Assembly (NCBI GenBank): GCA_016795075.1
Contig: JAEUIP010000001.1
Span: 20,608 to 84,607 of the forward strand
Origin: Planctomycetaceae bacterium
Lineage (GTDB): Bacteria; Planctomycetota; Planctomycetia; Pirellulales; Pirellulaceae
Length of the DNA: 64,000 nucleotides
Reading direction: 5' to 3'
In this document: one piece after another, positions 1,635-29,032 of the stretch
Layout of the letters: the number at the start of each line of letters is the position of its first letter
How positions within the stretch are numbered: position 1 is the first letter of the stretch
Translations under genes and position numbers: made by a program
The notes under the pieces: model-generated
The model's input: only the letters and a program-made list of their open reading frames with translations
Database searches by the model: none
What the model was told of the DNA's origin: nothing

Positions 1635-3056
1635 GTGAACTACTCAGAGTTGAAACGTTCGTTATTGTGTTTCATGGCGTGCCATTTTCTCGTCGACTTG
1701 TCGCACGCTTTTGGGCTAGAGCAGGACGATCGGTTCGACATGAATTCCGCCAAACCAAACCTTTCTCAGGTATGGAAGCCTCAACAAATTGTGGCGGGGC
1801 TGAATTTAGAGATCGGGAGACTAGAACGCGGAGCCCCAGATCCATCGGGCTCGTTTCGTCCGCGTGGCGAAGCGTCCATGCGAGTTTATCGCGACGCTAG
1901 TCCGGCCATCGTGATGGTGACGGATGGGAAAACGGGCCATGGAACAGGGTTCTTTATTCGTGAAGGTGGATGGATCATGACTAATCATCATGTGGTCGAA
2001 TCCATGCCCATTGATCCAACAACAGGAGCCAAGGTAGCCCGAGTTGTCGTCGGTCGTTTGGCAGATGACGGCGCGATGAGTGCCCATGAAGAGCACTTGG
2101 AAGCCATCGTCTATCGAACCGATGAAATTCGCGATCTGGCTTTGCTACGGCTCACAGACGTATCTGCCGAGATCGTCGCAGATCATCGATCGATACCGCT
2201 GGCTGATCAATCCCCAGTTCCCGGGACTTTGTGTATTGCCATTGGTCATCCTGCGCAAGGCGTGATGTGGACATTGCGACAGGGCGAGGTCTCGGGCCGG
2301 GGCCAATTTCCCAAAGATCAATTGGGAAATTTTGTCTTGCGAGGGGCCGATACATCCGAACGTGAATCCCTCGAAGATTTACTGGGAACATTGCCCAGTC
2401 GCAAAGTCTTGCTGTCGAGCTGTGGTTTGAACCCGGGTGATTCTGGTGGTCCTTTGTTAAACGAGGCTGGGCATCTAATTGCCGTCTCTTTTGCTGTGCC
2501 AACGATTGATGCGGAACGGGGCATCGACTTGGGCAAGTTCTCGTATCACGTGCACTTGGAAGAGGTCAAATCGTTTTTGGAAGACTGGCCATCCGAACCC
2601 GCGGTCGCACCGCCGTCGATCCTTCCTCCAGCTTTCGCACAGGCCCTGGTGGATATGGACGACGACAACCAACTCGAATCGTGGCTGTTTGCCTTGGATG
2701 CGTCAACTCCGTCGGGGTTCCTGGTTGACTTGGACGCCGATAGCGACCCTGACTTTATCAAGAGGGCACTTGCCGACGGGATCACCGACACGGAACCCTT
2801 GCAGACTTGGAACTGGGAATTCGCCTATGTCTTGGCCCCCCAAGAATTATTTGCCTTTGAGTTGGATGGCGACGGGCACCCCGATGTCGTTTTTGTACAA
2901 CAAGAACTGGGCCCAGACCACTGGAACAAATTCTCGAAGTCGGCGGACGGAATTTGGAAATGCGAGTCTTGGGAAGGTGATCCGCAGACCCACGAACATT
3001 TTGAATCTGCCGAAATGCAGCGTCAATTTCGGCGAATCATGCGACGTTTACGATAA
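1635..3056 (+). CDS. trypsin-like serine protease (S1 family) with an unknown C-terminal domain
   Basis: Catalytic triad contexts are GWIMTNHHVVE (His), IRDLALLRL (Asp) and LNPGDSGGPLLN (Ser). The ORF-track start at 1473 overlaps the upstream gene, so I chose the GTG at 1635, which is preceded by GAGGA (1623-1627). The N-terminus is hydrophobic (LLCFMACHFLV). Confidence 0.75.
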   Translation: MNYSELKRSLLCFMACHFLVDLSHAFGLEQDDRFDMNSAKPNLSQVWKPQQIVAGLNLEIGRLERGAPDPSGSFRPRGEASMRVYRDASPAIVMVTDGKTGHGTGFFIREGGWIMTNHHVVESMPIDPTTGAKVARVVVGRLADDGAMSAHEEHLEAIVYRTDEIRDLALLRLTDVSAEIVADHRSIPLADQSPVPGTLCIAIGHPAQGVMWTLRQGEVSGRGQFPKDQLGNFVLRGADTSERESLEDLLGTLPSRKVLLSSCGLNPGDSGGPLLNEAGHLIAVSFAVPTIDAERGIDLGKFSYHVHLEEVKSFLEDWPSEPAVAPPSILPPAFAQALVDMDDDNQLESWLFALDASTPSGFLVDLDADSDPDFIKRALADGITDTEPLQTWNWEFAYVLAPQELFAFELDGDGHPDVVFVQQELGPDHWNKFSKSADGIWKCESWEGDPQTHEHFESAEMQRQFRRIMRRLR

Positions 3057-3343
3057 TAGATCGGTCCAGCAAACCGCGTTGGAACAAGCCACGAACGACT
3101 TCCGGACAAAATATTCGGGCTTATTGTAAGTCGAGCCGGAACCGTGCGTTTCTGTGGGGCAGAACGATGCCTTGTTCCGTCACTTGCGGTTTGCGTTGAA
3201 ACAGGAGAAAATCAATGGCGTACTGCGCGACAGCGATCGCGATTCCGGGGCCATTCTTGGATCTGTCCCGATTCATGAAGCGAGCGGTCCCAACGACCGT
3301 CCGAGTTATCCTTCAACGGAGTTCGTGCGTGGACGAAACCCGA

Positions 3344-3925
3344 ATGTCATTATTGTTGCGGGCCCGAAATGCGGCTGACCCCGACGCATTCACGGAATTC
3401 TATCAGGTCTACGCTCCTTTACTCCAAAGATTTGTCCTGTCGCGTGGGGTGGATGAAACTTCGAGCGACGATGTGGTCCAAGAGTTGTTGATTTCCCTCT
3501 GGCGTCGCCTGCCTGAATTGGATTTTGATAAGACGCGAGGTCGTTTTCGCACTTATCTGTGGCAGAGCACCCATCATGCCGTGACGTCCTGGTACCGCAA
3601 AAACGCGAAGCACCTCAAATCTCGCGTTGCCGATCTTGATTCTCGCATGTTGGAACTGGAATACGAATCGCAAGGTGTTCCGGATCGCGAGTTCCAATTG
3701 GCCGTGCGCAATCGAATCTTGGAAGTTGTCTTGGCGCGGATTCAACAGGAGGTCTCGGACTCCGAATGGCAGAAGTTCAAACGGCACGTCGTGGACGGTG
3801 TTTCTGCGTTGGATCTGAGCCGAGAGTTGAGTTGTACAACCGGCGCTATTTATCAAGCTGCCAACCGCTTGCGCAAGAGAGTCCGCACGTTGTTTGATGA
3901 GTACGGAGAGGAATTCGATGTATGA
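3344..3925 (+). CDS. ECF-type RNA polymerase sigma-70 family factor
   Basis: Region 2 is present (FTEFYQVYAPLLQRFVLSRGVDETSSDDVVQELLISLWRR; RFRTYLWQSTHHAVTSWYRK), as is the region 4 HTH (ALDLSRELSCTTGAIYQAANRLRKRV). I moved the start to ATG 3344 (MSLLLRARN...). The stop overlaps the next start (ATGA at 3922-3925). Confidence 0.8.
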   Translation: MSLLLRARNAADPDAFTEFYQVYAPLLQRFVLSRGVDETSSDDVVQELLISLWRRLPELDFDKTRGRFRTYLWQSTHHAVTSWYRKNAKHLKSRVADLDSRMLELEYESQGVPDREFQLAVRNRILEVVLARIQQEVSDSEWQKFKRHVVDGVSALDLSRELSCTTGAIYQAANRLRKRVRTLFDEYGEEFDV

Positions 3926-5778
3926 ACGCCATTACCGAATGCCTCACGGAAGAGGAACTGATTGCCTTGCTGTCGGGCGAATCGGTATCTTCAGAAAAGT
4001 CAACTCACATGGAGCAGTGCCAATATTGCCAAGAAACCCGCAACCAAATTCGTTCGGACCTCGATGCAATCCGAGCCGTCGCCAATTCTAGCATTGACGA
4101 GATTACCTTTTCGAATCCCGATGTTCGCAAACCTCGCCAGCTTTCACAAGGAACGCCGACCGAGCGTGGCCACCAAGATGGTCGGTTGGCGATTGGATCG
4201 ACGGTAGGAAACTACACCGTGATTCGGTTGCTCGGTCGAGGTGGCCAATCCGAGGCCTACTTGGTACGGCAGACGGATAAAGGTGAAGACTCGCCTCGGT
4301 TTGTGCTCAAAATTTCCCGTATCACGGATGCCTGGGGCCTACCGTTGTCGGCGTCGCAGTGGCACCATCTGCATGCTGCGTTGAAATCTGAAGAGGAAAC
4401 ACTGTACAAGCTTCGCGGCATTACGGGGACGCTGCAATACGTCACCGCTGGGCAGGTAGATCTCGGGGGTGGCAAACCTGAGCCATATCTAGTGACCGAT
4501 TATGTGCGTGGACAAACGCTACAACAACGCGGCACGGAGTTTACCGACCCGCAGCAAGCCGTTCTATTGGTCAAAAAGATTGCCGAGATCCTCTCTCACG
4601 TGAATCGGATCGGCGTGATTCACGGCGATCTCAAACCGCAAAACGTCATGTTGAGTGACGACGATTCGCCAACGGTCATTGATTTTGGAATGGCGAGGAT
4701 TCGTGATGTTTGGAATCAAGGTGATGTTTCCGAAATGCAAGGCGGAACGATCCAGTACATGTCTCCTGAGCAGGCGAAAGGCGATGCTTCACGGATCGGC
4801 TCTGCCACGGACGTGTTTGCGTTAGGAGCAATCCTTCAACAGTTGGTGACCCAACAAAAAGTGTACGACGGCGATCATTGGAAAACTTGTTTGGAGGCGG
4901 CCAAAGCCGGACGCGTCAACGTCGCCGACGCGCGAGCATTTGGGCATCGACAATTGCAACACGTGGTGGCTCGCTGTTTGGCAAGCGAACCAGAACTGCG
5001 TTTTGCCAATGGAGGTGCGGTGGCGGAGGCGTTGTCTCGTCTTCAGTTTGCAAAGTTCTCGCGCTGGCAATTTGCTGGCGTTTTTTTCCTGGCACTACTG
5101 GCAATCACGGCGATTTTGTGGCTGGCGTTTTATCCACCGTGGATCGAGCACTCCAACTCCGAGCCATCAAGTCTCGCGACGGAGTCGCCGGTTCCAGGTT
5201 TGTTGGGTTCCGATGATCTCAAAGTTGGTGAGTGGAATAAGAAGCTGCCGGTTACGGCGGGCAGTCGGTTACGTGTCGAAGCACAGGGCCCAGCCAACAA
5301 CGCATGGTATTTGGTCTGGATCGATAGCAGGCGAGAAGTATTCGTTTTTTCGCAGGATTCTCCAGAGAACCCGATATTGACGGAGCCTGTCGACGATGGG
5401 ACTAAAGTGCGTGTCGTTTGGCCGCGACTTGAAGAGGGAACCATCAGTATCGAAAGTGAAGGAGGGACCGAGCTGCTGATGTTGGTCGGTTTCCCAATCC
5501 ATCATCCAATCTCAGAACAAGAGCTCAAAGACGCCATTGCAGCCGTATTGGCCACCGCGGATGCGTGGCCTGACCTTCCCGAAACGGTTTTAGCCCGGTT
5601 TGACAAAACACGCGTCCATCCCGTGTCGCCAACCGGCACGATGCGTGGCCCGGGTAAGGTAGAACCTTCGGCCTATCGGCAAATCGAAAAGACGATTCGT
5701 CGTATTCGCGAAACGATCGAAGACCGTGCAGAGTTCATCCGCGGGGAAGCCTTTCACGTGTCACCAAATACGGAATGA
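3922..5778 (+). CDS. Ser/Thr protein kinase with N-terminal zinc-binding anti-sigma (HxxxCxxC) domain, one TM helix and an extracytoplasmic DUF4384-like domain
   Basis: The N-terminal HMEQCQYC fits H-x3-C-x2-C. Kinase motifs are GRGGQSEAYL...FVLK, HGDLKPQNVM, DFG and YMSPEQ. The TM helix is FAGVFFLALLAITAILWLAFY. The C-terminal domain reads VTAGSRLRVEAQGPANNAWYLVWIDSRREVFVF...GGTELLMLVGFP. Confidence 0.85.
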   Translation: MNAITECLTEEELIALLSGESVSSEKSTHMEQCQYCQETRNQIRSDLDAIRAVANSSIDEITFSNPDVRKPRQLSQGTPTERGHQDGRLAIGSTVGNYTVIRLLGRGGQSEAYLVRQTDKGEDSPRFVLKISRITDAWGLPLSASQWHHLHAALKSEEETLYKLRGITGTLQYVTAGQVDLGGGKPEPYLVTDYVRGQTLQQRGTEFTDPQQAVLLVKKIAEILSHVNRIGVIHGDLKPQNVMLSDDDSPTVIDFGMARIRDVWNQGDVSEMQGGTIQYMSPEQAKGDASRIGSATDVFALGAILQQLVTQQKVYDGDHWKTCLEAAKAGRVNVADARAFGHRQLQHVVARCLASEPELRFANGGAVAEALSRLQFAKFSRWQFAGVFFLALLAITAILWLAFYPPWIEHSNSEPSSLATESPVPGLLGSDDLKVGEWNKKLPVTAGSRLRVEAQGPANNAWYLVWIDSRREVFVFSQDSPENPILTEPVDDGTKVRVVWPRLEEGTISIESEGGTELLMLVGFPIHHPISEQELKDAIAAVLATADAWPDLPETVLARFDKTRVHPVSPTGTMRGPGKVEPSAYRQIEKTIRRIRETIEDRAEFIRGEAFHVSPNTE

Positions 5779-19512: not shown

Positions 19513-19708
19513 CAGAGGACTCCAGAATCTCATAAGGTGGTTCGTTATGGCGACCCAATCAAAATCGATTGGCTCGCGACATCACCATTACAAGTCGAGC
19601 GGTCGCCTGTGACAACAAATTTCACACCAGAGCGCAGCACGACATCATCGAGTCGATATCCGAAATTCGGGGGTCCCCGGCGTGCATGACCGTCAGAATG
19701 TAGAACGA

Positions 19709-19848
19709 GTGTTTTGTCGCAACCAAAAATGAGGTTCTCGGGGAGCGGTGGGGAGTCCATTGTGCGAAGCACCCGCATGGTCGCTCAGGCAATAGCATCA
19801 GCCCCGATTACCAGACCGACCGCAGAATTAAATGGTGACCAACCAAAA
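19709..19848. repeat. MITE-like nested palindromic element, degenerate copy (M1)
   Basis: It starts GTGTTTTGTCGCAACCAAAAAT, has the central ...GGAGTCCATTGTGCGAAGCACC... and ends ...TACCAGACCGACC...GGTGACC. By eye it is colinear with copies M2 and M4. Confidence 0.6.
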
Positions 19849-20114: not shown

Positions 20115-20253
20115 GTGCTTTGTCACAACCAAAAATTAGGGCCGTTTGAAGCAACCTGGAGTCCGTTATGCGAAGCACCGTCAGGTCCGTTCCAGGAATG
20201 GACTCCTGCCCCCCTCACCAGACCGACCCCAAAACCAAAGGGTGACAAAGCAG
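20115..20253. repeat. MITE-like nested palindromic element (M2)
   Basis: The termini are GTGCTTTGTCAC (20115-) and GTGACAAAGCAG (-20253). The internal ...GGAGTCCGTTATGCGAAGCACCGTCAGGTCCGTTCCAGGAATGGACTCC...CACCAGACCGACCCCAAAACCAAAG is colinear with M4. Confidence 0.75.
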
Positions 20254-20351
20254 TAGAATCTACCCGGTGTTTTCCAGGTAAGGACTTTTCCAAAGAGAGC
20301 TATCGCGTATTTTGGCGGCCAGAACGATGGAGGTTGACGGTCGTAACGGAA

Positions 20352-20496
20352 CTAGTGCTTTGTCATTACTTAATTTTGCGGTGGGTCTGGTAAAGGTGTC
20401 AGGAGTCAATTGCCGGAACGGCCCTGCGGGTGCTTTGCACAATTGACTCCTGACACCTTTACCAGACCCCCATTCTTAGCTGTGACAAAGCACTAG
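20352..20496. repeat. MITE-like nested palindromic element, best-preserved copy (M3), core inverted relative to M2/M4
   Basis: The 14-nt terminal inverted repeats are perfect: CTAGTGCTTTGTCA (20352-20365) and TGACAAAGCACTAG (20483-20496). The 29-bp inner inverted repeat GGTCTGGTAAAGGTGTCAGGAGTCAATTG (20384-20412 and 20440-20468) is also perfect and encloses a 27-nt loop. Confidence 0.85.
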
Positions 20497-20534
20497 GCTT
20501 TGCCCGAAAAGCGGTCCGACCCTCTTTAAAGCAA

Positions 20535-20568
20535 TTTGGCGAGCGCCGGCACACCGACGCTCGCCAAA
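20535..20568 (-). terminator. strong hairpin 3' of the first selenoprotein gene (non-canonical terminator or RNA stability element)
   Basis: The 11-bp stem TTTGGCGAGCG/CGCTCGCCAAA (20535-20545 and 20558-20568) has a 12-nt loop and lies 28 nt downstream of the stop at 20596. On the minus strand the U-rich run precedes rather than follows the stem, so it is not a textbook terminator. Confidence 0.35.
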
Positions 20569-20595: not shown

Positions 20596-21270
20596 CTACT
20601 CGGCGTCGTGGTCCTCGTGGGTGATCTTCACTTCATGTCCCATCTCCGCGAGAAGGGATGCAACGGCTTCGTCCATGGCAGCACCACGGACGTTCTTGAA
20701 CCGGATGACACCGTCCTTGTCCAAGACATAAATGGTTGGCCAACCTCGAACGCGCCAAGCTCGCGATATCGCGCCGCCCGTTCCTTCCGGGCCATTCCAG
20801 AAACTTCGCCAACTAATGTTTTTTGCTCTCGAGACTTCTCGAATTTCGTTGACATCCTTGTCGCTGTTGACGCCGATCAAACTAAACGGTTTGTCAGAGA
20901 GTTGTTTAACGAGCGACCGCTCGTGCGGGTACATGGCCCGACAAGGCGGTCACCAATCCCCCCAAAAGTCTAAAACAACCACTTTGCCGCGATAGTCACT
21001 CAATTTGAACTCGACTCCGTCGAAGTCCGAACCGATGATCTCGGGAGCGACCTTGCCAATTTCTAAATTAGCTTCGTCGATTACCGGATTATTTTCGGCA
21101 GTTGGGGCGGCGACCGGAATCATTTCTTTGGGCTTTGATTCGGTTGTGGCGGGATTCGGTTGGCCTGACGGCGCCGAGTTCTTGGCAACCGTCGGATTAC
21201 CGGGTTCGGCACATCCAAGCGAGATTCCGATCATCGCCAACAGCCCGAGCCGTTGGATCTTTTTTCTCAT
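20596..21270 (-). CDS. TlpA/ResA-like thiol:disulfide oxidoreductase lipoprotein with predicted selenocysteine (UxxC: W-U-P-P-C); in-frame TGA at 20950-20952
   Basis: ORFs 20950..21291 and 20596..20934 are in the same frame, separated only by TGA plus 5 codons. Joined, they read GKVVVLDFWGDW-U-PPCRAMYPHERSLVKQLSDKPFSLIGVNSD...GWPTIYVLDKDGVIRFKN, which is the redoxin/TlpA layout. The signal peptide and lipobox are MRKKIQRLGLLAMIGISLGC, and AGGAGG lies 7 nt upstream of ATG 21270. Confidence 0.75.
20909..20924 (-). promoter_or_regulatory. SECIS-like hairpin downstream of the in-frame UGA (gene at 20596..21270)
   Basis: The mRNA reads UGA + 25 nt, then ACGAGC-GGUC-GCUCGU (6-bp stem, GGUC tetraloop). 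The same 16 nt occur at the same offset in the paralog. Confidence 0.55.
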
Positions 21271-21298
21271 ACGACACCTCCTAGGTCCCACGTGGTCA

Positions 21299-22687
21299 TT
21301 ACTGGTCTCCTTCCGCTTCGTGAGCGATTTGGACGGAATGCCCCATTTCGGATAGCAACTTCGTCAAAGCCTTATCCATATCGGCACCCCGTGCATTCTT
21401 GTATCGGATCACACCATGTTCGTCCAAGATGTAAATCGTCGGCCAACCAGTAACGTTCCACTGGGCCGAAATAGGACCACCGGTCCCCTCAGGCCCATTC
21501 CAGAAGCTCCGCCAGTTGAGATTCTTCTCCTTGACAGTTGCCCGAATCTGTTCTAGTTCGCGATCACTATTGACGCCAATCAAGGCGAATGGTTTGTCGG
21601 AGAGTTGTTTGACGAGCGACCGCTCGTGTGGGTACATGGCCCGGCAAGGCGGTCACCAATCTCCCCAAAAGTCTAGCACCACCACTTTGCCGCGATAGTC
21701 GCTTAGCTTGAATGCCACTCCATCCAAATCGCTACCAATGATATCGGGCGCGACCTTGCCAATGCTGAGATTTTCGACAGCAAACAACAATCGCTCGGCC
21801 TGCGGCCCAAGCGGCCGTCGCGCGCTGTCAGAGACATCCGCGTATTTAGAAATGACTTCATTCAACAGCTTTAGAACCCGCTCTTCTAATGCAGGATTGT
21901 CCGCACTGGACAATTGCCGTGCCAGCATGAATGTCGCCACACCTTTCACGGCTTTATCTTTCGCCTTGGATTGCAATTTTTCCAGCATTGCTAAGTCACG
22001 GGCGATCAGACCGATGAAGGGAAGAATTTCAGGACTATCCGCGAAATGTTGGACCAACGCCTCGATCGCCGTAGCGGCTTCGGTTCCTTGAGCTCCATTA
22101 CGGACGACCCAGATGTACACGTCCCGGGCAACTTCCGATTGCGGCACGGCTTCTACCAACTTCAACAATTGCTGGCTGGTCTCTTGAACCAACGGCTGAC
22201 GAGCATTTCGAATTTGAGCCGCGTCGGTTCCCGATTGCTTCAGCTGTTCCTCACGTTGGTTGAAGCTGTCCAAAATAGACTGCAACTCGTCCTTCAAGTC
22301 TTCGCCGCGCTGTTTCGACTCGGCAGCTGCTTTCTTCTTGGCGGCGTTTTCGGCCAACATTGTTTTACGATAATCGGCTGCATAACGGCGATCGGCCTCC
22401 GACAACTGGTCCAAGGCGACCGTGCGTTCCGTCCCATCCGCCAATATCAGGACGACAGAGTCGCGTTTCAGTTCTTTAATCGTGGCTTCGACCGAAAATT
22501 TTCCACTTGCATTGGTCCAAGTTCTGGCCTCTTGCGACCAAGACGGGGCCGTCACACCACAGCAGATCACGAACAGAGTGGCCAACGTGATCTGCCATCT
22601 GGAAATACTCCATCTTGAAACAGGTCTGTGGCGCGGTGGCCAACCAACCCGATGCAGTTCGATTTTTGGGGTTAATTCTTGCGTCAT
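21299..22687 (-). CDS. SHD1-domain / helical-domain / TlpA-like thiol:disulfide oxidoreductase with predicted selenocysteine (W-U-P-P-C); in-frame TGA at 21653-21655
   Basis: ORFs 21653..22687 and 21299..21637 are in the same frame, separated by TGA plus 5 codons. The junction GKVVVLDFWGDW-U-PPCRAMYPHERSLVKQLSDKPFALIGVNSD is the same as in the neighbour. The N-terminus has a TM/signal segment and RTWTNASGKFSVEATIKELKRDSVVLILADGTERTVALDQLSEADRRY (SHD1-like). Confidence 0.75.
21612..21627 (-). promoter_or_regulatory. SECIS-like hairpin downstream of the in-frame UGA (gene at 21299..22687)
   Basis: ACGAGC-GGUC-GCUCGU lies 25 nt after the UGA. Flanking codons carry synonymous changes relative to the paralog (CCG/CCA, UGU/UGC, GUU/GUC) while the hairpin is invariant. 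Confidence 0.55.
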
Positions 22688-28779: not shown

Positions 28780-28820
28780 ATATCCCTCGCTTTCGCTTGG
28801 GGTGGAGGATGGCCCCCCGA

Positions 28821-29032
28821 GTGCATTGTCACAACTTATCTTTAGGGTCTGGTAAAGGTGTCAGGAGTCAATTGTGCGAAGCACCGTCAGGGCCGTTCCG
28901 GCAATTGACTCCTATCGGTCTGGTAAAGGTGTCAGGAGTCAATTGTGCGAAGCACCCAAAGGGCCGTTCCGGCAATTGACTCCTGACACCTTTACCAGAC
29001 CGACCCCAAAACCAAGTAGTGACAAAGCACTA
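28821..29032. repeat. MITE-like nested palindromic element with tandemly duplicated core (M4)
   Basis: The termini are GTGCATTGTCAC (28821-) and GTGACAAAGCAC-TA (-29032). The 29-nt arm GGTCTGGTAAAGGTGTCAGGAGTCAATTG occurs twice (28846-28874 and 28917-28945). One full complementary arm lies at 28973-29001 and a truncated one at 28902-28913. Confidence 0.85.

Follow-up and report, generated by a model that had tools for sequence, protein, structure and literature searches.

Two neighboring genes in a 64,000-nucleotide (nt) stretch of the genome of a Planctomycetaceae bacterium (contig JAEUIP010000001.1; the whole stretch is referred to hereafter as the window) each contain an in-frame TGA that, judged from sequence comparisons, very probably serves as a true selenocysteine (Sec) codon. 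The genes, which we call gene B (21299..22687, minus strand) and gene A (20596..21270, minus strand), form a tandem, probably co-transcribed pair. They are predicted to encode exported thiol-disulfide oxidoreductases of the TlpA/ResA type in which the attacking residue would be Sec, so that the active-site C-x-x-C would read U-P-P-C. As a preliminary description of this DNA had it, the open reading frame (ORF) pairs 20950..21291/20596..20934 and 21653..22687/21299..21637 each lie in one frame and are split by the TGA plus 15 nt. The motif at both sites is DFWGDW-TGA-PPC: the upstream ORF ends at the TGA with ...YRGKVVVLDFWGDW, five codons (PPCRA) follow, and the second called ORF starts from an ATG with MYPHERSLVKQL... 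The joined reading proposed earlier, ...GKVVVLDFWGDW-U-PPCRAMYPHERSLVKQLSDKPF..., was recovered for both genes. From the ORF list and Pfam matches, together with an AlphaFold model for gene B, gene B is a frame of 462 codons including U345 that ends in TAA, and gene A is a frame of 224 codons including U107 that ends in TAG. The triplet for the predicted Sec345 lies at 21653..21655 and that for the predicted Sec107 at 20950..20952 (both on the minus strand), each within W-U-P-P-C.

The position of the TGA in the protein was established by domain and structure comparisons for which Cys was put in place of the TGA. Both proteins scored above the gathering thresholds of Pfam families PF00578 (AhpC-TSA; 67 bits, cut-off 26), PF08534 (Redoxin; 57-60 bits) and PF13905 (Thioredoxin_8; 56 bits). 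Matches in the PDB were ResA, TlpA, DsbE/CcmG and 'thioredoxin family proteins', with E values down to 5e-15. At the residue level FWGDW-[U]-PPC aligned over FWATW-C-PPC, FWGTW-C-KPC and FWASW-C-GPC, which places the TGA at the first, attacking Cys of CxxC. This bears out the earlier claim that the TGA occupies the site of the nucleophilic N-terminal Cys in a TlpA/ResA-type fold. The thioredoxin-fold domain spans residues ~309-434 of gene B (21386..21763, minus strand; from Pfam and the paralog match to gene A) and residues ~71-196 of gene A (20683..21060, minus strand; from Pfam and the PDB alignments). Its fold and its W-C-x-x-C site at the start of helix 1, with U replacing the first Cys, are those of the TlpA/ResA/DsbE-like oxidoreductases (cd02966). 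Scores against the narrower NCBIfam models were all below cut-off, at 68.5 versus 170 for ResA (NF002854), 48-51 versus 230 for TlpA (NF047696), and 43-48 versus 123 and 32-35 versus 359 for DsbE/CcmG (TIGR00385 and NF011941, respectively). Judged by NCBIfam, genes A and B are thus not ResA, TlpA or DsbE equivalogs. Nor do they reach the existing selenoprotein models WAxxUGC_long (NF041054; 30-35 versus 300), redoxin_TUGYCR (NF053656; 19 versus 100) and TsoB (NF045694; 18-21 versus 805).

Relatives of the two genes were sought in one genome per species. The scan found 393 relatives, and the best 80 loci were retained. In these 80 loci, which come from the 80 closest species genomes, every family copy has TGA at the catalytic codon. 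Nearly all of the loci are from metagenome-assembled genomes (MAGs) of Planctomycetota (Pirellulaceae, Mariniblastus, Gemmataceae, Fimbriiglobus, Isosphaeraceae and others). The census, which includes the window and duplicate loci, comprised 98 gene copies, 93 of them distinct over 153 nt. Across the 93 sequences codon positions 1 and 2 are conserved and position 3 is variable on both sides of the TGA. Elsewhere in the family the catalytic column is Cys; full-length Cys relatives (WC[PG]PCRAMYPHER...) exist, and our sample of them consisted of eight metagenome loci, seven of them distinct, that read W-C-(P/G)-P-C-R-A-M-(Y/F)-P-H-E with TGY at the site. Thus, a check of this column for Cys or TGA, suggested in the preliminary description, found both. 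Many family matches in the protein database are fragments of 110-145 residues, and the short matches that were fetched all (11 of 11) start at M(Y/F)(P/G)HERSLVK, as expected if their genes were split in the same way. Two such C-terminal fragments, MDG2185156.1 (P0121) and MCH2177577.1 (P0128), are named 'TlpA family protein disulfide reductase' in GenBank and 'hypothetical protein' in IMG. One database protein (P0034; ENA, 199 residues) reads DFWGDW-G-PTC, with Gly at the Sec position; this could be a genuine Gly variant, or the depositor's pipeline could have applied genetic code 25 to a TGA.

These comparisons bear directly on the possibility that genes A and B are pseudogenes, in which the TGA would be an inactivating nonsense mutation and the downstream part would go untranslated. 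Gene callers do split both genes, and no Sec machinery was seen in the window, as decay would allow. Nevertheless, the comparative data effectively refute this explanation. The same codon is TGA in the 93 distinct copies from ~80 species-level genomes, and none of these genes, reconstructed through the TGA, has another in-frame stop or a frameshift; stops or frameshifts at other positions in relatives had been named beforehand as a result that would refute the Sec reading. In addition, the TGA is kept in two paralogs that have long been separate. Between genes A and B synonymous differences, as a proportion, reach 0.64 ahead of the TGA and 0.89, which is saturated, downstream of codon 15, while the corresponding non-synonymous proportions are 0.10 and 0.22 (pN/pS of 0.16 upstream and 0.25 downstream of the TGA). 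Genes A and B are old paralogs. Because synonymous divergence is saturated, the TGA they have in common does not stem from recent copying of a single lesion, and because non-synonymous differences are few relative to synonymous ones, both halves of each gene, including the part downstream of the TGA, have been under purifying selection. The original argument that two diverged paralogs with TGA at the same site fit Sec-for-Cys use rather than decay is upheld on each of these points.

Paralogous copies are frequent in the family, and several genomes contain two or three in tandem. Multiple Sec gene copies, tandem or nearby, were seen at L005, L014, L016, L017, L021, L050, L055 (three copies), L075 and L080. 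The closest locus, L005 (Pirellulaceae bacterium JTS-AC165, JBGSJV01), shows synteny with the window, and their nucleotide identity is 92-94% over 20 kb. In both L005 and L014 a long form precedes a short lipoprotein form, as it does in the window. Members with TGA and hairpin were also found on contigs of 4.6-8 kb in bins labeled Luminiphilus (Gammaproteobacteria), Brocadiaceae and Verrucomicrobiota (L061, L071 and L074). These labels could reflect mis-binning or lateral transfer.

The search for a selenocysteine insertion sequence (SECIS) recommended in the preliminary description identified one conserved hairpin after both TGAs. An invariant stretch, CACGAGCGGTCGCTCGT, folds as ACGAGC-GGUC-GCUCGU, a 6-bp stem closed by a GGUC loop, and encodes the invariant peptide H-E-R-S-L-V. 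The hairpin starts 28 nt after the U of UGA, i.e. 25 nt beyond the UGA, and occupies +28..+43 from that U in both genes (21612..21627 in gene B and 20909..20924 in gene A, minus strand). Codon-choice entropy over the 93 sequences was 0.09, 0, 0, 0 and 0 bits for the H-E-R-S-L codons (+27..+41), compared to a mean of 1.32 bits and a minimum of 0.51 for 34 reference codons outside the element. The Arg codon is CGG throughout, the Ser codon TCG and the Leu codon CTC, although each of these residues has six codons, and the hairpin is invariant even at four-fold degenerate sites. RNAalifold paired the hairpin in 88 of 88 sequences. In the 1.3 Mb of fetched DNA, the core 12-mer, GAGCGGTCGCTC, was counted 98 times, in 97 cases exactly 30 nt after a family TGA. 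Within the window, the two hairpins are the only ones with a perfect 5-bp stem and a GGTC loop.

The Cys forms behave differently. The hairpin is lost in six of the seven distinct Cys forms, five times by amino-acid change (HEREIV, HERDLV, HEQEIT, HERGLV and HERALV) and once in a form that retains HERSLV with the Leu codon TTG. The sole Cys form with an intact ACGAGC-GGUC-GCUCGU hairpin (L092:6118-6170, equal to database protein P0006) has TGC at the site and looks like a recent switch from Sec to Cys or a precursor to a switch from Cys to Sec.

Upstream of the hairpin, two codons of the spacer that follows the UGA are frozen as well. For the Arg at +12 no codons other than CGG and AGG are used, and for the Tyr at +21 only TAC, while the adjacent Ala and Pro codons vary freely. 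The sites (+12..+23 after the U of UGA; 20929-20940 and 21632-21643 in the window, minus strand) are frozen in the same columns of all loci, and could be a GGG/CCC mini-stem, or a contact with the ribosome or SelB. A further stem, GACCGC...GCGGUC, appeared in single-sequence minimum-free-energy folds and uses the UGA itself; it was rejected since positions +3 to +5 vary freely (CCN/GGN) across the family.

Bacterial SECIS elements are described as a stem of 6-8 bp whose loop has a conserved G, typically some 20 nt past the UGA (PMC4605307), and the 6-bp stem fits this general description. Comparison with the SECIS of Escherichia coli fdhF, which was read from the genome, reveals both likeness and difference. 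In both cases the hairpin lies in coding sequence just after the UGA and the apical loop is GGUC. However, counted from the U of UGA, the loop of genes A and B begins at +34 and that of fdhF at +21, and the stem of genes A and B is a perfect 6 bp with neither the bulged U nor the long lower stem of fdhF.

Several observations weigh against reading the hairpin as a SECIS element and the TGA as Sec. The distance from the UGA to the first loop G is 31 nt, as opposed to 18 nt in fdhF and the ~20 nt of the general description. As the hairpin is invariant (a single C-to-U change retains a G.U pair), it offers no covariation; the support for its structure thus comes from sequence invariance and thermodynamics and not from compensatory changes. 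Rfam gave no match in the whole window at gathering thresholds, and only two chance-level matches around the genes at E values up to 10. In the similar candidates of planctomycete isolate P1, which are considered below, bSECISearch at default settings found no SECIS (PMC4807772), although those candidates may or may not be members of the family of genes A and B. Finally, neither a tRNA-Sec (ARAGORN; window and 92 loci) nor selA, selB or selD (tblastn with E. coli SelA, SelB and SelD; window and loci) was found, in agreement with the earlier remark that the machinery is not in the window. The only tblastn match to the Sec machinery queries, in L064, is a TypA/BipA GTPase. Complete selA, selB, selC and selD are present in the planctomycete isolates P1 and P2, Gemmata obscuriglobus and Isosphaera pallida (Kim et al. 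2016, PMC4807772), and we infer that the four genes are present elsewhere in the genome studied here. The long spacing from UGA to loop could explain why standard SECIS predictors miss the element. Together with the frozen spacer codons, this spacing could reflect a SelB geometry specific to the lineage.

A stable hairpin after a stop codon can, as textbooks have it, stimulate read-through, and this raises the question of whether the UGA is decoded as something other than Sec, either by a genome-wide reassignment to Trp or Gly or by near-cognate read-through with Trp, Cys or Arg. The Gly at the site in the database protein P0034 could be taken in favor of this. We consider it very unlikely. 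Of 36 further long ORFs in the window, 12 end with TGA, some of them at ATGA junctions in which a stop overlaps a start, and the genetic code is therefore not reassigned. The recoded site is always that of the catalytic nucleophile; homologs have Cys there, and no residue other than Cys or Sec would make the enzyme active. In addition, the hairpin has the GGUC loop of the fdhF SECIS. Searches for further selenoprotein genes yielded nothing convincing, either among in-frame TGAs flanked by open frame in the window or among TGAs followed by a GGUY-loop hairpin in all loci.

The called ORFs themselves suggest a different outcome, in which translation terminates at the UGA and either a second initiation, at the ATG five codons on, yields the C-terminal half as its own polypeptide or only a truncated N-terminal protein is produced. 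An ATG, encoding the Met of RAMYPHE, is indeed found 15 nt after the TGA in every copy and is the second start chosen by gene callers. This Met, however, is equally conserved in the Cys forms, which have no stop, and is therefore a structural residue; as no Shine-Dalgarno-like sequence precedes it either, it is not a restart site. Separate synthesis would also split the thioredoxin fold between the active-site strand and helix and remove the nucleophile. A further argument comes from L096, where a single frame of 793 codons (2062-4443, plus strand) contains two complete modules, each a helical domain plus a TlpA domain with its own W-TGA-(P/G)-P-C and an identical hairpin, and has TAA as its sole terminal stop. 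Such a frame is sensible only if both UGAs are read through, and its product is predicted to be a two-Sec fusion protein. Taken together, these points make termination at the UGA extremely unlikely. Two database ORFs (P0027 and P0050) are built like the L096 frame, in that the C-half of one module continues directly into the N-part of another.

Decoding as Sec, then, is the explanation we prefer, and genes A and B resemble bacterial selenoprotein genes in having UGA at the Cys position of their homologs, conservation at the protein level downstream of the UGA, and a stem-loop of SECIS type beyond it. As UxxC selenoproteins with a thioredoxin fold are long established, the two genes belong to a kind of selenoprotein that is already known. 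The preliminary description had called this class established, and the literature agrees: a 'thiol-disulfide isomerase-like protein' selenoprotein family (Zhang 2005) is listed in a 2026 review (PMC13188914), and planctomycete candidates were published in 2016 (PMC4807772). By motif and by the description of the fold, the Zhang 2005 family and genes A and B are alike in their TlpA-like thioredoxin fold and in Sec replacing the first Cys of CxxC, and the UxxC motif of genes A and B does lie in a TlpA-like (cd02966) domain. Cys homologs are widespread in both cases, and the members of both were predicted computationally from the in-frame TGA. The published work on thiol-disulfide isomerase-like proteins, in contrast, concerns marine metagenomes and Deltaproteobacteria, whereas the clade of genes A and B is essentially Planctomycetota-wide. 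Unlike the published family, this clade usually has a helical N-terminal domain of ~250 residues and a single frozen SECIS sequence.

The closest precedent is in isolate P1, for which Kim et al. (2016, PMC4807772, Table S9) list two 'thiol-disulfide isomerase-like thioredoxin' Sec candidates, each annotated as two genes; their closest full-length match has Cys at the Sec position (PMC4807772). Compared by description, the P1 candidates share with genes A and B the phylum, the adjacent split genes and a Cys in the closest full-length match, but bSECISearch detected no SECIS in the former while a conserved hairpin was identified in the latter. ResA, TlpA and CcmG/DsbE resemble genes A and B in fold, in the W-C-x-x-C layout and in the GWPT cis-Pro region, and probably also in an N-terminus of the extracytoplasmic-signal or lipoprotein type. 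They differ in having Cys where genes A and B have Sec, and genes A and B further differ in NCBIfam scores far below the cut-offs and in the lack of neighboring genes for cytochrome c maturation or Sco. WAxxUGC_long, redoxin_TUGYCR and TsoB are, like genes A and B, thioredoxin-fold or ResA-like selenoproteins, although the motifs of the first two (WAxxUGC and TUGYCR) are distinct from the W-U-(P/G)-P-C of genes A and B.

The clade marked by W-U-(P/G)-P-C-RAMYPHERSLV may constitute a Planctomycetota-wide selenoprotein family, often in multiple copies, that has not been described as such, a suggestion that we hold with somewhat less than even confidence. NCBIfam has no model for this clade, and public annotation splits its members everywhere. 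What is added to existing knowledge at the family level is the spread across Planctomycetota, the frozen and long-spaced SECIS, the two-Sec fusions and the absence of a dedicated annotation model. Both genes of the window and ~90 relatives in public planctomycete MAGs have been deposited as truncated ORF pairs; joining the split ORFs restores complete redox enzymes and flags the genomes as Sec users. As a marker, the frozen 16-nt hairpin is simple and highly specific, and it could be used for a family model or for SECIS predictors that allow longer spacing. The data also suggest that extracytoplasmic thiol-disulfide chemistry depends on selenium in many Planctomycetota. Mainly, however, the result is a correction of annotation that is useful to curators and unsurprising to specialists, and it leaves the current view of Sec decoding unchanged.

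The neighbors of the pair in the window encode GroEL, DnaJ, a radical-SAM QueE-like protein, aconitase and a DUF7133/cytochrome c protein. ORF clustering within 6 kb across the loci revealed no conserved gene neighbor (the best cluster occurred in 12 of ~80 loci), and no genes for cytochrome c maturation or Sco were found among the neighbors. Since neither a conserved neighbor nor an informative one in the window is available, the mechanism we propose is taken from the family. SECIS hairpins within the coding sequence would recruit SelB carrying Sec-tRNASec, whose binding there would recode the in-frame UGA. The products would then be exported, that of gene A as a lipoprotein; the gene B product has a hydrophobic helix near its N-terminus. 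In the periplasm the selenolate would attack disulfides or other oxidized cysteines of substrates, the second Cys of the motif would resolve the resulting selenenylsulfide, and a membrane reductase of the CcdA/DsbD type may return the enzyme to its reduced state.

The two proteins differ in what precedes the TlpA-like domain. In gene A, the sequence MRKKIQRLGLLAMIGISLG-C at the N-terminus is a putative signal peptide of lipoprotein type (21211..21270, minus strand; read from the sequence) that ends in the lipobox-like I-S-L-G-C (Cys20) and is followed by a Pro/Ala-rich linker. Inspection by eye suggested a lipobox-like or hydrophobic N-terminus for gene A, gene B and most homologs; LVAC, TVGC and LAGC are among the homolog N-termini that resemble the gene A lipobox. 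Gene B, modeled with AlphaFold over residues 1-344 (21656..22687, minus strand; predicted local distance difference test score, 85.7), has in order a hydrophobic helix (28-45), an SHD1 beta-barrel (55-91), a helix of ~55 residues and a TPR/HEAT-like helical repeat ahead of its C-terminal TlpA-like domain. The SHD1 (SLA1 homology domain 1) barrel, at residues 52-106 by Pfam (22370..22534, minus strand; PF03983, E value 1.2e-7), was matched by Foldseek to 2hbp, and the other Foldseek matches of the N-terminal domain were weak ones to TPR/BamD-like or designed-repeat proteins. Most relatives are 360-480 residues long and consist of a signal or lipobox-like N-terminus, a helical domain and a C-terminal TlpA domain. 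The helical repeat of gene B is common to most family members and has no Pfam model; this N-terminal domain may select substrates.

With respect to transcription, gene A starts 28 nt 3' of the gene B stop. An alternative open start for gene A is the GTG at 21291, but the ATG at 21270 is the likely start because GGAGG is located 6 nt upstream of it. A terminator-like 15-bp hairpin, detected by a consensus scan only, lies 28 nt 3' of gene A (20535..20568, minus strand) and is likely the end of the B-A transcript. The 28-nt gap and this hairpin make it probable that the pair is transcribed as one unit. Partly palindromic intergenic repeats of ~140 nt occur in the window just 3' of gene A, at 19708-19845, 20115-20256 and 20352-20497, and once more at around 28.9 kb (28817-29032). 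The same repeat family is found in L005 and resembles repetitive extragenic palindromic (REP) elements or miniature inverted-repeat transposable elements (MITEs).

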